Shown here piece after piece: positions 1-8,991 of a DNA stretch of 8,991 bases. The stretch is from a virus (lineage: Duplodnaviria > Heunggongvirae > Uroviricota > Caudoviricetes). Position 1 is the first letter of the stretch. Every line of letters starts with the position of its first letter. The position numbers and the translations under genes were made by a program. The stretch lies in the IMG/VR virus record IMGVR_UViG_2675903578_000015; one strand, 5' to 3'. The notes beneath the pieces were generated by a model that saw nothing but the letters and a program-made list of their open reading frames with translations, had not been told where the DNA came from and ran no database searches.

Positions 1-1236
1 CTACGATAACCGCGCATTCAACATGGCTACCTGTTCGTCGTTCATGTCATCAATCCACATACCGTAAATTTCATACACCATCTGCGCAGTTTCATGCCCC
101 ATCTGGCTGGCTATAAACGCCGGGTTCGCTCCTGCCGTCAACAGCCAGCAGGCAAAAGTATGCCGCGTATGGTACGGATTACGGCGGCGAATACCAGCAC
201 GTTTTACTGCTGCATTCCATCTCGCACCCAAACTGCTTACCGAGTAATAAGGTTTCTGTTTTCCGTTACACACTCTGGGCATGAAAACAAAATGCAGTTT
301 TTGCTTTTCGGTTCTGCCGTACTCCCGATGATAAAAAGTGATTTCGCTTTTGCGATGATGCCCGGTCAGTTTGTATTGCTCCTTCAGTGCTTCAAGAGCA
401 GGCTGCAGTAGTGTTACCGTCCGGATCCCCGCATTTGTTTTTGGGGGACCGAACATATCCAGTATCGTCAGGTTTCTTCTGACATTCACAACTCCCTTCT
501 CGAAATCCACATCCTCCCACGCCAGAGCAGCCAGTTCCCCGTGACGAAGCCCGGAGTATACGGCAAATTTCCACAAGTTCTGGCTCTGTCCTTTTTCACT
601 TTCCATTAATGCATTGAATTCTGTTTTAGATAACGGGTCAGGCTTTATTCTGTTTCTCTGTAATTTCTTTACTCCTTCAAATGGTTTGGTTGATATAAAT
701 CCCGACTGATACGCAAAACGTAACAACGAACAGAGCAGGGCGATATAGTTATCAACTGTGCGCACGGTTCTTCCTTTTTTGTTGGATCTTGGATTATCCA
801 GGTAAAGCGTTTCTCCATGCAGCAGTTCATTCCGGTAGTTTAAGATATCGCTATAACGAATATGCGATATCGGAGTACTCTCACAAATTATTATCCTGAG
901 TGTTTTTAATTGTGATTTCGTTTTCTTCATTGTGTTTGTTGTTAACTCTGTTTCTTTAATTTTTGTCCAGATATCACAAAGCTCCCCGAACGTTTTTATG
1001 ACCCTCGTTGTCACCATTTTTGCCCCAGTGCTGGACTGGGGAAAACGTCTTAAATACTCAAACTCACCGGAATTGATTTCATGAACTATCAACGCTCTTA
1101 AATTCCCGGCTTTTTTAATGTTACTGTTAGTAACCTCCCAGCCTTTCAATGTTTCCCGACATCGTTTTCCTCGAAACATGAACCAGATGCGAATGTATTT
1201 ACCTCGAATCTCGACACCTGTTGGTAATTTAGACAT
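1..1236 (-). CDS. intR: Phage tyrosine integrase (site-specific recombinase), 411 aa
   Basis: Complete minus-strand ORF, ATG at 1236-1234, TAG stop at 3-1. C-terminal region carries the H-x-x-R and downstream Tyr signature typical of tyrosine recombinases (..NPYHTRHTFA..MVYEIYG..). Length and sequence match recalled Rac IntR. Confidence 0.93.
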   Translation of the reverse strand: MSKLPTGVEIRGKYIRIWFMFRGKRCRETLKGWEVTNSNIKKAGNLRALIVHEINSGEFEYLRRFPQSSTGAKMVTTRVIKTFGELCDIWTKIKETELTTNTMKKTKSQLKTLRIIICESTPISHIRYSDILNYRNELLHGETLYLDNPRSNKKGRTVRTVDNYIALLCSLLRFAYQSGFISTKPFEGVKKLQRNRIKPDPLSKTEFNALMESEKGQSQNLWKFAVYSGLRHGELAALAWEDVDFEKGVVNVRRNLTILDMFGPPKTNAGIRTVTLLQPALEALKEQYKLTGHHRKSEITFYHREYGRTEKQKLHFVFMPRVCNGKQKPYYSVSSLGARWNAAVKRAGIRRRNPYHTRHTFACWLLTAGANPAFIASQMGHETAQMVYEIYGMWIDDMNDEQVAMLNARLS

Positions 1237-1237
1237 A

Positions 1238-1453
1238 TCATGAGTCTTTGATAAACTGATTTATCTTTGGATAGTTATACCAGATAATCCCTCGCTTACT
1301 GTCTGGCTTCCCTAAAGGAGATACTCGTTTGAAGTGGAAGCCTTCCACCCAACAGTTCTGGCGGTATGCTTCAATTTGTCTGGCCCCCAGACCAGTGCGA
1401 AGCATCAGGCCGTATTCAACCATCCACTCTTCATTAAAGATTACTTGTGCCAT
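1238..1453 (-). CDS. xisR: Excisionase-like small DNA-binding protein, 71 aa ([10 protein letters not shown]...)
   Basis: ATG at 1453-1451 preceded by GAGGTGAT Shine-Dalgarno on the minus strand. The 79-aa version in the ORF track starts at a TTG (1477) with no ribosome-binding site. TGA stop at 1240-1238 lies 1 nt from the intR start codon. Matches recalled ydaQ/xisR of Rac. Confidence 0.8.
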
Positions 1454-1504
1454 CGCATCACCTCTGGCAGGCGCCAATGTTAGACTTAAATTGACGCCCG
1501 ATGT

Positions 1505-1520
1505 TGATTATTAATAATCA
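1505..1520. promoter_or_regulatory. Perfect 16-bp palindrome TGATTATTAATAATCA between ydaC and xis, overlapping a plus-strand promoter-like pair TTGACG (1491-1496) - 16 nt - AATAAT (1513-1518)
   Basis: Read directly: the reverse complement of 1505-1520 is identical to itself. Hexamers match sigma70 consensus at 5/6 and 5/6 with a 16-nt spacer. Confidence 0.4.
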
Positions 1521-1552
1521 GCTATGAAGTTTTAATTTGAATACAATGCAAT

Positions 1553-1740
1553 TCACGAGGACTGAAGTTTCTCGCAATTAAAATTTATCAGTTTTACTTT
1601 CTGCTCTCTGGAAACGCCTGCTTCTTTTTTACCTGAGAGCATTTTTTCGCATTCTGATTTCGTTAGTTTAGATTTTGAATATCTTGTCCAGTTAGTAGGA
1701 GTGCCACCTTCCTTTTCAATAGTGGCGGTAATTTTATACA
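1553..1740 (-). CDS. ydaC: Small prophage protein of unknown function, 62 aa from MYKITATIEKEGG... (66 aa if the upstream ATG at 1753 is used)
   Basis: Minus-strand ORF with TGA stop at 1555-1553. The ATG at 1740 is preceded by GGAGG with a 6-nt spacer; the alternative ATG at 1753 abuts the masked block. Position between xis and recT matches recalled ydaC of Rac. Confidence 0.65.
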
Positions 1741-1755
1741 TGAACACCTCCATTA

Positions 1756-2006
1756 NNNNNNNNNNNNNNNNNNNNNNNNNNNNNNNNNNNNNNNNNNNNN
1801 NNNNNNNNNNNNNNNNNNNNNNNNNNNNNNNNNNNNNNNNNNNNNNNNNNNNNNNNNNNNNNNNNNNNNNNNNNNNNNNNNNNNNNNNNNNNNNNNNNNN
1901 NNNNNNNNNNNNNNNNNNNNNNNNNNNNNNNNNNNNNNNNNNNNNNNNNNNNNNNNNNNNNNNNNNNNNNNNNNNNNNNNNNNNNNNNNNNNNNNNNNNN
2001 NNNNNN
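1756..2006. other. Masked or undetermined bases (251 N)
   Basis: Run of n characters in the supplied sequence. It covers the 3' end of recT and the position where reference Rac carries the ralR/lar toxin gene. Confidence 1.
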
Positions 2007-6015: not shown

Positions 6016-6236
6016 CACCATGACTCCGCCTTTACAGGTAAACCATCACGACCGAGGAAGACTTTAATCATGCGGTCAGTAATGCATGTTTTTGTGGTCA
6101 GGTTACGAATATATAGTTTTCGCTTTTTAATATTGTTTGCCGAGGCAATATATGTCCGGCCTTCATGAAGAACATAATCGCCAGGAGTCACACACTGACG
6201 TGGTATTTCATCAGTTCCGAAGTGATGTGCAATCAT
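6015..6236 (-). CDS. kilR: KilR cell-division inhibitor (FtsZ-targeting Kil protein of Rac), 73 aa
   Basis: ATG at 6236-6234 preceded by GGAG with 6-nt spacer. The 77-aa version starting at 6248 has no ribosome-binding site. Translation [32 protein letters not shown]... matches recalled KilR. Confidence 0.85.
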
Positions 6237-6411
6237 AATTATCTCCATTTTTACAAATGAACTTTGTTGATGCGGTGCCTGGTGCCTCCAGGTGACTGCA
6301 ACCAGTTAACAATTACAGTCGGCTTTCCCACCCAAACCAATAAGGACTAACATGACTTTTAACTGTGCCACGTGCGCTTAGCCGCATTCACCGCATCACA
6401 AAATTCACTTT

Positions 6412-6459
6412 AAAAAGGGCGGACATCAGCCGAACTTCAAGAAAAAAACTGATGCCGCC
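6412..6459 (-). terminator. Candidate orientation-specific intrinsic terminator or attenuator upstream of kilR
   Basis: Inverted repeat GGCGGACATCAG (6418-6429) / CTGATGCCGCC (6449-6459), 11 bp with one bulged A, separated by a 19-nt A-rich loop. On the minus-strand transcript the stem is followed directly by CUUUUU (plus 6412-6417); there is no U-tract on the plus strand. The large loop is atypical. Confidence 0.3.
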
Positions 6460-6677
6460 AGGACTACACACAGCAATGTCGTTATTTACAACCGGAGGCG
6501 CACTCCCACCATTTAAATTTAACAGACAAGACCGACTCTTTATGGATATCGGAAATGCGCCTTCGTGTTGTGCCCGGTTTTATTTCACCACCTCCGGGCT
6601 TCGGTGGTCTCGGCTATACCCCTACAGCGAGAGCTTGTGTTAACATTTCAATACCCTTACAGTTGAGAGTTATTGAT

Positions 6678-7097
6678 ATGTTGGATGTATTTACTCCATT
6701 GTTGAAACTTTTTGCTAACGAGCCACTCGAAATACTTATGTATACGATTATCATTTTTGGTCTCACTCTCTGGCTGATACCGAAAGAGTTTACTGTCGCA
6801 TTCAATGCTTANNNNNNNNNNNNNNNNNNNNNNNNNNNNNNNNNNNNNNNNNNNNNNNNNNNNNNNNNNNNNNNNNNNNNNNNNNNNNNNNNNNNNNNNN
6901 NNNNNNNNNNNNNNNNNNNNNNNNNNNNNNNNNNNNNNNNNNNNNNNNNNNNNNNNNNNNNNNNNNNNNNNNNNNNNNNNNNNNNNNNNNNNNNNNNNNN
7001 NNNNNNNNNNNNNNNNNNNNNNNNNNNNNNNNNNNNNNNNNNNNNNNNNNNNNNNNNNNNNNNNNNNNNNNNNNNNNNNNNNNNNACATCAGAGTGA
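6678..7097 (+). CDS. sieB: Superinfection exclusion protein B, inner-membrane protein; most of the body is masked
   Basis: ATG at 6678 with GAGAG upstream. The visible N-terminus MLDVFTPLLKLFANEPLEILMYTIIIFGLTLWLIPKEFTVAFNA contains a hydrophobic transmembrane-like segment. The frame reopens after the mask as ..TSE-TGA at 7095-7097. Matches recalled Rac SieB; exact start and length are uncertain. Confidence 0.7.
   Translation: MLDVFTPLLKLFANEPLEILMYTIIIFGLTLWLIPKEFTVAFNAXXXXXXXXXXXXXXXXXXXXXXXXXXXXXXXXXXXXXXXXXXXXXXXXXXXXXXXXXXXXXXXXXXXXXXXXXXXXXXXXXXXXXXXXXXXXTSE
6812..7085. other. Masked or undetermined bases (274 N)
   Basis: Run of n characters; hides about 90 codons of sieB. Confidence 1.
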
Positions 7098-8198: not shown

Positions 8199-8277
8199 AA
8201 GTTCAATGATATTCACTCTTGAATGTACTGTCAGTTCTGTTATAGCATGTACTCAAAGTTCACATTGTGAGGGTGAT
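8199..8277. promoter_or_regulatory. OR-like divergent control region between racR and ydaS
   Basis: 79-bp spacer between divergent start codons. Direct repeats of ATGTACT at 8223-8229 and 8247-8253, 24 bp apart. Plus-strand promoter-like TTGAAT (8219-8224) - 16 nt - TATAGC (8241-8246). GAGGG ribosome-binding site at 8269-8273 for ydaS. Confidence 0.45.
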
Positions 8278-8574
8278 ATGAACCAGAAAACACTTGAAGA
8301 TGTAATNNNNNNNNNNNNNNNNNNNNNNNNNNNNNNNNNNNNNNNNNNNNNNNNNNNNNNNNNNNNNNNNNNNNNNNNNNNNNNNNNNNNNNNNNNNNNN
8401 NNNNNNNNNNNNNNNNNNNNNNNNNNNNNNNNNNNNNNNNNNNNNNNNNNNNNNNNNNNNNNNNNNNNNNNNNNNNNNNNNNNNNNNNNNNNNNNNNNNN
8501 NNNNNNNNNNNNNNNNNNNNNNNNNNNNNNNNNNNNNNNNNNNNNNNNNNNNNNNNNNNNNNNNNNNNNNNNNN
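8278..8574 (+). CDS. ydaS: Cro-like small regulator/toxin partner YdaS; only the first 9 codons (MNQKTLEDV) are visible
   Basis: ATG at 8278 with GAGGG 4 nt upstream, divergent from racR. The 8574 end is inferred from the recalled length of about 98 aa and lies in the masked block, so it is not observed. Confidence 0.5.
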
Positions 8575-8587
8575 NNNNNNNNNNNNN
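8307..8587. other. Masked or undetermined bases (281 N)
   Basis: Run of n characters; hides most of ydaS and the start of ydaT. The 261-aa ORF 8206-8991 in the track is an artefact of reading through N. Confidence 1.
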
Positions 8588-8991
8588 ACATCGAGTCAGT
8601 GTTGTTAGCCCTGGCAGCCGAAAAAGGGCAGGCATGGGTAGCCAATGCCATTACTGAAGAATATCTGCGCCAGGGGGGCGGCGAATTGCCCCTGGTACCA
8701 GGCAAGGACTGGAATAATCAGCAGAATATCTATCACCGTTGGTTGAAAGGTGAAACGAAAACGCAAAGAGAAAAAATTCAGAAGCTGATCCCAGCAATTC
8801 TGGCAATCCTTCCGCGCGAGCTGCGTCACCGACTCTGCATCTTCGATACCCTGGAACGCCGTGCATTACTGGCGGCGCAGGAAGCGTTAAGTACGGCAAT
8901 TGATGCGCATGATGATGCAGTCCAAGCCGTTTACCGGAAAGCGCATTTCAGCGGCGGCGGGTCTTCCGACGATTCTGTCATTGTTCATTAA
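8569..8991 (+). CDS. ydaT: YdaT, CII-like or toxic prophage protein; 133 C-terminal residues visible (IESVLLALAAEKGQAWVANAITEEYLRQGGGELPLVPGKDW...SDDSVIVH)
   Basis: Frame reopens at 8590 and runs to TAA at 8989-8991. The 8569 start is inferred from the recalled 140-aa length and lies in the mask. Matches recalled YdaT. Confidence 0.7.
   Translation, partial: XXXXXXXIESVLLALAAEKGQAWVANAITEEYLRQGGGELPLVPGKDWNNQQNIYHRWLKGETKTQREKIQKLIPAILAILPRELRHRLCIFDTLERRALLAAQEALSTAIDAHDDAVQAVYRKAHFSGGGSSDDSVIVH

Follow-up and report, generated by a model that had tools for sequence, protein, structure and literature searches.

The perfect 16-bp palindrome between the excisionase gene xisR and the ydaC-like reading frame of a Rac-type prophage is most likely a further, previously unreported operator/promoter of YdaT, the CII analogue encoded in the same prophage. 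Taking the sequence comparisons together, we lean to the reading in which the palindrome would be a YdaT operator at about position -42 of a xisR-intR promoter, as an analogue of lambda P_I, and would possibly be shared with the gene of the small RNA RalA.

The window and its genes

The stretch of DNA analysed here (the window, 8,991 nucleotides at its full length) corresponds to the left end of a Rac-type prophage in E. coli. Over the 261 nt that surround the palindrome it shows 100% identity to several O157:H7 and O111 chromosomes, and 99.2% to K-12 (K-12 coordinate = window coordinate + 1,411,999), and the palindrome region is found in 1925 of 5426 complete E. coli genomes. The minus strand carries the series intR, xisR (ydaQ) and a DUF1187/ydaC-like reading frame, followed by ralR, recT and recE. 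Rightward of recE lie kilR and sieB, the immunity region and the 3' part of ydaT. The genes that matter most for the argument are the following.

1-1236, minus strand: intR, tyrosine integrase (open reading frame list and RefSeq/K-12 annotation)
1238-1453, minus strand: xisR (ydaQ), excisionase, DUF1233 (Pfam PF06806, E 6e-21; RefSeq annotation)
Stop at 1553, minus strand: DUF1187/ydaC-like reading frame (open reading frame list and annotation)
8588-8991, plus strand: C-terminal part of ydaT (its translation agrees with that of ydaT in the unmasked relative L002)

The intR gene starts 1 nt past the stop of xisR and is presumably co-transcribed with it. Three N masks interrupt the window (1756-2006, 6812-7085 and 8307-8587), the last of which covers the 5' end of ydaT and the canonical YdaT-box. 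Between them the masks hide ralR and part of the 5' end of ydaC, most of sieB, and a cro-like gene together with the 5' end of ydaT; reading frames that span them, such as 1553-2857 and 8206-8991, are artefacts. At position 1555 the window has an A where K-12 has a T, which creates a TGA 2 nt upstream of the 5' end of RalA, and because of this TGA the ydaC-like frame stops at 1553, as compared with about 1532 in the K-12 gene rcbA. Two Rfam matches below the gathering threshold were observed on the minus strand, DicF at 6417-6472 (39.1 bits vs 48) and STnc100 at 6229-6415 (35.5 vs 47). The DicF-like match coincides with the small RNA KilS (b4833), which is annotated in K-12 upstream of kilR.

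The palindrome as a probable YdaT operator

The palindrome, TGATTATTAATAATCA at 1505-1520, is perfect over 16 bp, just as the first-pass annotation had described it, and is a real, non-random feature. It is located in the 99-nt spacer from xisR (1238-1453, minus strand) to the stop of the ydaC-like frame (1553, minus strand), and is a single copy in the window even when up to 3 mismatches are allowed, with 0.07 copies expected by chance. The worry that such a palindrome could simply arise in an AT-rich spacer was not borne out: when the 99-nt spacer was shuffled with its composition preserved, 0.2% of the shuffles contained a perfect palindrome of at least 16 bp, and 0.1% the repeat TTGATT-N6-AATCAA at one mismatch or fewer.

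1504-1521: inverted repeat TTGATT-ATTAAT-AATCAG, with the palindrome (1505-1520) as its core; predicted YdaT operator on the basis of consensus match, conservation and covariation

YdaT is a helix-turn-helix tetramer and an experimentally supported functional analogue of lambda CII. The YdaT footprint in CP-933P, the operator OM, reads TTGATT-N6-AATCAA (Prolic-Kalinsek et al. 2023, PMC9986795), and the one in Rac, which extends over the start codon of ydaT, reads ATGATT-CATGAA-AATCAA (Wons et al. 2025, PMC11879457). The Rac and CP-933P proteins cross-bind each other's box. The repeat at 1504-1521 matches the footprinted TTGATT-N6-AATCAA at 11 of the 12 positions, with a perfect core TGATT-N6-AATCA, and so conforms to the operator repeat (T/A)TGATT-N6-AATCAA. 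The prophage that carries it also encodes a YdaT-family (PF06254) protein, the gene of which lies about 7 kb from the palindrome; for the YdaT homologues discussed below the assignment to this family was confirmed by Pfam.

Sites at no more than one mismatch from the consensus are rare. The 23-kb Rac prophage of K-12 contains only two, the palindrome site and the validated YdaT-box, and the same two-site result was obtained for L001 and L002, unmasked relatives of the window in which the canonical box TTGATTCATGAAAATCAA is present. Dinucleotide shuffles of Rac contain 0.18 such sites on average; the probability of at least two is 0.02, and that of a site in the xisR-ydaC spacer about 0.001. 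Auxiliary YdaT half-sites were not found within about 100 nt on either side of the palindrome, where the best candidate had 4 mismatches in 12 positions. The idea that the palindrome, with its dimeric-site geometry, could be an operator is thereby supported and made specific: in sequence it corresponds to the operator already known for YdaT, which the same prophage encodes. We regard it as quite probable, judging from the letters of the DNA, that YdaT binds the palindrome.

The published YdaT sites are two in Rac and one in the host (rcsA), and in the partial text of that report xisR, intR and ralA are unmentioned (PMC11879457). The xisR-ydaC spacer site is absent from these published sites, as far as the partial text goes, and no other paper describing it was found.

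A third perfect core, TGATT-N6-AATCA (CTGATTCGCGTAAATCAG), was observed inside ydaW, where it is conserved (13119-13136 in L003, which is K-12, and 12378-12395 in L002). It is probably not a promoter site, since neither side has a -10-like hexamer at 20-21 nt; the match may be due to chance, or it may be a YdaT site with no promoter.

Conservation of the box and a putative xisR-intR promoter

An XisR search of species-representative genomes yielded 22 loci, with XisR proteins that are 52-100% identical. The diverged loci (XisR identity 52-70%) belong to Citrobacter, Leclercia, Enterobacter, Klebsiella and Pseudescherichia. They have an inverted repeat NTGAxx-N6-xxTCAN at 65-70 nt before the xis ATG, within flanks that differ, and about a dozen diverged prophages carry such a repeat in front of xis. 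In an alignment of 15 xis-upstream sequences no columns are invariant except the ATG, two positions within a downstream hexamer and, in the box, TGAT and TCA. Conservation in Rac-like prophages, which had been proposed as a check on the palindrome, thus gave a divided answer: the half-sites are kept, but the perfect 16-bp symmetry is specific to Rac and the 6-nt spacer is variable. A set of 80 Rac-like viral contigs from the XisR search, in which XisR is 100% identical and which is therefore informative on polymorphism rather than on divergence, includes three with a spacer change that destroys the perfect palindrome and leaves the half-sites intact.

The conserved hexamer resembles a -10 element.

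1477-1482, minus strand: TAACAT, predicted -10 of a xisR-intR promoter without a -35, separated from the box by 21 nt and from the xisR ATG by 23 nt

A TAnnnT hexamer is found on the xis side of every xis-proximal box, at a distance of 20 nt, or of 21 nt in Rac and L024. In the relatives with the 20-nt spacing it reads TATACT, TATAAT, TATAGT or TACTGT, usually one of the first two. The A at its second position and the T at its sixth are present in all hexamers called at 20-21 nt, the second-position A being invariant in the alignment. The same arrangement was found in phage contigs. A xis gene was found in 32 of 80 YdaT-positive contigs (TGATA-type), and all 32 have the box, 20 nt and TAnnnT upstream of it, with the hexamer ending 23-24 nt before the ATG. 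A TTGACA-like -35 upstream of the xis hexamers was not found in the diverged loci or in the 32 phage contigs. In Rac, transcription of xisR-intR would start near 1470 on the minus strand, which would place the centre of the box at about -42.5. A recognisable -10, a poor -35 and a fixed distance from the activator site are the features of a CII-type promoter, and all three are found here.

The ydaT-proximal boxes have a TAnnnT at 20-21 nt as well, in 15 of 15 loci and on the antisense side only. This is the direction in which YdaT-dependent activation of reporters was measured, both in Rac (up to 29-fold) and in CP-933P. The composite motif of box and -10 occurs in K-12 Rac only at the palindrome site and at the validated YdaT-box. 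The Rac box of the spacer has hexamers on both sides, TAACAT toward xisR-intR and TACAAT toward RalA.

With regard to the validated YdaT-box, a TATGAT was observed exactly 20 nt from it on the racR-directed strand (10652-10657 of L003, minus strand; about 8536-8541 under the mask of the window), and equivalents are present in 15 of 15 loci examined. This suggests, from the position of the hexamer, that the YdaT-activated reverse promoter abuts the box, whereas PracR4 has been placed about 190 bp away (PMC11879457).

By this layout, YdaT bound to the palindrome would recruit or stabilise RNA polymerase at the -35-less xisR-intR promoter in the fashion of a class II activator. The synthesis of excisionase and integrase would thereby answer to the lysogeny regulator, as a counterpart of lambda P_I. 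We give the activation of xisR-intR by YdaT an even chance. The promoter of Rac looks weaker than those of its relatives, with a spacing of 21 nt vs 20 nt and a poorer -10 (TAACAT). The stationary-phase induction of xisR is RpoS-dependent and needs no YdaT; the C that precedes TAACAT would suit sigma-S.

When RacR is depleted, and ydaST thereby derepressed, expression goes up about 100-fold for xisR and intR and by a factor of more than 70 for ralA and ydaC; the rise of xisR and intR could equally be explained by read-through from the early-left operon. Overexpression of YdaT induces no Rac excision, and excision persists in a ydaT::bla strain, while overproduction of XisR alone raises excision about 10-fold. 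Since an excess of YdaT gives no excision and an excess of XisR does, activation in K-12 would be weak or conditional, or insufficient for excision: either the promoter responds weakly there (21-nt spacing, poor -10) or further factors are required. Lambda CII, for comparison, is irrelevant to excision.

The same absence of a rise in excision would fit a YdaT that binds the palindrome and acts negatively, keeping excisionase low either by blocking read-through from the early-left genes (recE-recT-ralR-ydaC) or by occluding sigma-70-like promoters. Both promoter-like pairs found by scanning indeed have an AATAAT inside the box (1513-1518 on the plus strand and 1512-1507 on the minus strand), and YdaT is known to cover the -35 and -10 of PydaST as well. 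These in-box pairs, however, are not conserved in the relatives or in the mosaic prophage L026 described below. Conservation is seen for a -10 without a -35, at a constant 20 nt outside the box, an activator-dependent layout like the one on the reverse side of the ydaT box that YdaT activates. We therefore consider a negative role improbable.

Covariation of the half-sites with YdaT

YdaT homologues were identified by an iterative profile search in 16 loci, and in each of these the 5' end of ydaT has a box of its own. Within a prophage the xis-proximal and ydaT-proximal boxes share their half-sites. These are TGATT in Rac, L018 and L020, TGATA at both boxes in L012, L013, L014, L016, L017, L021, L022 and phage PHB10, and TGATC/GTTCA at both boxes in L009; in L014 the complete 16-mer is common to the two. 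The half-sites thus track the cognate YdaT of each prophage. For 11 lineage pairs the four half-site positions that vary were compared: 35 of 44 comparisons matched, where permutation gave a mean of 25.1 (P = 0.0014, with no correction for phylogeny and shared ancestry). Because the lineages are non-independent, we take the covariation as supportive of recognition by YdaT, not as conclusive. Every locus with a YdaT homologue has a matching xis box, and L019 is without both.

The box is not tied to one type of excisionase. The 32 phage contigs with a xis gene encode proteins of two unrelated families, the lambda-type Exc (PF07825) in 26 and the XisR type (PF06806) in six. In L026, a prophage at yebY of E. 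coli ERL06-2442, the box, 20 nt and TAnnnT are again found upstream of an Exc-type xis.

L026 is a mosaic prophage. Its homology to Rac (the side of RalA, ralR and recT) starts exactly at the left edge of the box (L026 3001-3020), and to the left of the box it has an unrelated pair of genes, for an excisionase and an integrase of lambda type, which come with a hairpin and a -10 of their own. In this prophage, modules appear to have been joined by recombination at the box.

We consider it quite improbable that the palindrome binds a protein other than YdaT, be it XisR or IntR in autoregulation or one of the host proteins Fur, FNR, IHF and H-NS. XisR does bind DNA and may dimerise, and H-NS influences Rac excision, but the half-sites change per prophage in step with the ydaT box footprinted with YdaT, which a host factor would not explain, and the presence of the box before an unrelated excisionase family argues against recognition by XisR. 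As to the individual host proteins, TTGAT and ATCAA are FNR half-sites, but here they are 8 nt apart vs 4 in an FNR site (TTGAT-N4-ATCAA), and the best in-register match is 8/10. The 19-bp Fur box (GATAATGATAATCATTATC) is matched at 13/19 at best, in an AT-rich spacer, and would leave the phage-specific covariation unexplained. The matches to the CRP (6/10), IHF, LexA and ArgR consensus sequences are weak for an AT-rich region.

A hairpin on the xis side of the box

1470-1498, minus strand: inverted repeat/hairpin in the xis sense, GGCGTCAAT, an 11-nt loop and ATTGGCGCC

The loop of this hairpin contains most of the predicted xis -10. Equivalents were examined in L009-L026, L108 and L112-L161, and all 29 unique relatives fold alike, with inverted repeats of 8-15 bp and arm sequences that differ among lineages. 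These folds were obtained per sequence, as MAFFT/RNAalifold gave 6 consensus pairs only, the arms being unalignable by sequence. The mismatches in the arms are mostly G.U on the xis-sense strand (mean -16.8 vs -13.2 kcal/mol for the antisense), and because of these G.U pairs a xis-sense RNA is the favoured form. It looks like an RNA hairpin that is present only in transcripts reading through from upstream. It is neither a terminator nor a means of ribosome-binding-site sequestration, and repeated operators of the immunity repressor were ruled out for its arms, which are unique within each locus.

RalA and the plus-strand hexamers

On its other side the palindrome faces the gene of RalA.

1557-1735, plus strand: RalA sRNA, antitoxin of RalR (Rfam RF02694, model positions 1-179 of 179, 225.1 bits vs gathering 170; b4714 in K-12)
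1542-1547, plus strand: TACAAT, likely -10 of RalA, separated from the box by 20 nt and from the mapped 5' end by 9 nt
1491-1518, plus strand: TTGACG-16-AATAAT, the hexamer pair of the first-pass annotation (TTGACG at 1491-1496, AATAAT at 1513-1518), 10/12 in a consensus scan

RalA is antisense to the ydaC/DUF1187 frame. Primer extension placed its 5' end at the G in position 1557, 37 nt downstream of the palindrome (Guo et al. 2014, PMC4041452, for the mapping). In L026 the equivalent of the RalA -10 is TATAAT, at the same 20-nt spacing. The same bound YdaT may also raise RalA, because the site is symmetric and its other edge lies 20 nt from TACAAT. We infer a link of YdaT to the RalA promoter in this way, and hold the view that YdaT affects RalA as a tentative one. 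RalA is detectable without YdaT, and the box-less plasmid pCA24N-ralR-ralA still gives RalA activity. An 11-nt inverted repeat (AAGTTTTAATT at 1527-1537 and AATTAAAATTT at 1576-1586, 91% complementary) was observed to bracket the -10 and start of RalA.

The pair TTGACG-16-AATAAT had been put forward as the promoter of an antisense RNA directed into ydaC. It is present on the plus strand, with AATAAT overlapping the palindrome. The direction and the kind of transcript stand as well, as RalA is a plus-strand RNA antisense to ydaC; the hexamers named for it do not, since they would give a start at about 1525, some 30 nt too early. The pair is the best promoter-like match in the region. We nevertheless find it very improbable that it is a working sigma-70 antisense promoter, with the palindrome as its -10 region or as a generic operator. 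The RalA 5' end is at 1557, TTGACG is the complement of one arm of the xis-side hairpin, and in L026, which keeps the box and RalA (93.5% identity), unrelated sequence is found at the TTGACG position. The plasmid pCA24N-ralR-ralA, moreover, supplies RalA activity without this promoter. The pair, which overlaps hairpin arm and box and is not conserved together with RalA in L026, is probably incidental.

No intrinsic terminator was found on either strand between 1200 and 1760, and the palindrome does not qualify as a terminator of the ydaC transcript, having an AT-only interior and no T tract.

That the palindrome is a functionless chance feature of an AT-rich spacer is hardly credible: its inner 12 bases are indeed A/T only, and variation within Rac is too low to reveal selection, but the shuffle probabilities are 0.001-0.002, and position and half-sites are kept across diverged prophages with unrelated flanks, at a fixed spacing to the -10.

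The preferred reading of the palindrome as a YdaT operator can be extended to a single scheme, in which one symmetric YdaT site co-activates the two divergent -35-less promoters of xisR-intR and RalA, and the hairpin sorts the transcripts. Read-through transcripts of the early-left operon would carry the hairpin, and YdaT-initiated transcripts, which would start inside it, would lack it, in a 5'-end analogue of sib retroregulation. We think this full scheme unlikely.

Comparison with known systems

The targets already known for YdaT are a P_RE-like one and a single host target (rcsA). If the proposed operator is real, the P_I-like arm that is missing from the YdaT circuit would be in place for a widespread group of prophages of enterobacteria. 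The control of Rac excision, which is poorly understood, would gain a concrete cis element, and the small RNA of a type I toxin-antitoxin locus would be tied to the regulator of lysis and lysogeny.

The closest comparison is with the Rac YdaT-box and operator OM of CP-933P. The palindrome site shares with these its half-sites, the 6-nt length of the spacer, and its location in the same prophage as the regulator gene, as well as the TAnnnT at 20-21 nt on the transcribed side. Unlike the Rac YdaT-box, it lies some 7 kb away in the xisR-ydaC spacer, has a different spacer sequence that is itself palindromic, and is flanked by hexamers on both sides.

At class II activator promoters CRP or FNR is centred at -41.5. 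The predicted arrangement is similar: a palindromic operator of 16-18 bp has its centre at -41.5, or at -42.5 in Rac, adjoins the place of a missing -35 and is combined with a good -10. It differs from the CRP and FNR cases in that the activator is a tetramer with a POU-like helix-turn-helix, and the geometry given here derives from the positions of the -10 hexamers rather than from mapped starts.

The CII-dependent promoters of lambda include P_I, for int, and P_aQ, for an antisense RNA against Q (summarised in PMC9986795). As at these promoters, a lysogeny activator would act here at a poor or absent -35 beside recombination genes, with a regulatory RNA perhaps under the same activator. The recognition is different, since CII reads direct repeats, TTGC-N6-TTGC, that straddle the -35, and YdaT reads an inverted repeat just upstream of it. 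P_I, moreover, is located inside xis and serves Int only, whereas the predicted Rac promoter precedes xis. It would give Xis too, because the predicted start at about 1470 is upstream of the xisR ribosome-binding site and ATG (1453). The Int-without-Xis transcript of lambda P_I thus has no equivalent here, and the Rac promoter may resemble P_I in function but differs from it in organisation. As to the second promoter, the RalR/RalA type I toxin-antitoxin locus (PMC4041452) contributes a complete RalA to the window, and if the co-activation is true, RalA would be the Rac counterpart of the CII-dependent P_aQ RNA, with the difference that RalA acts in trans on the ralR mRNA and not as a cis-antisense RNA.
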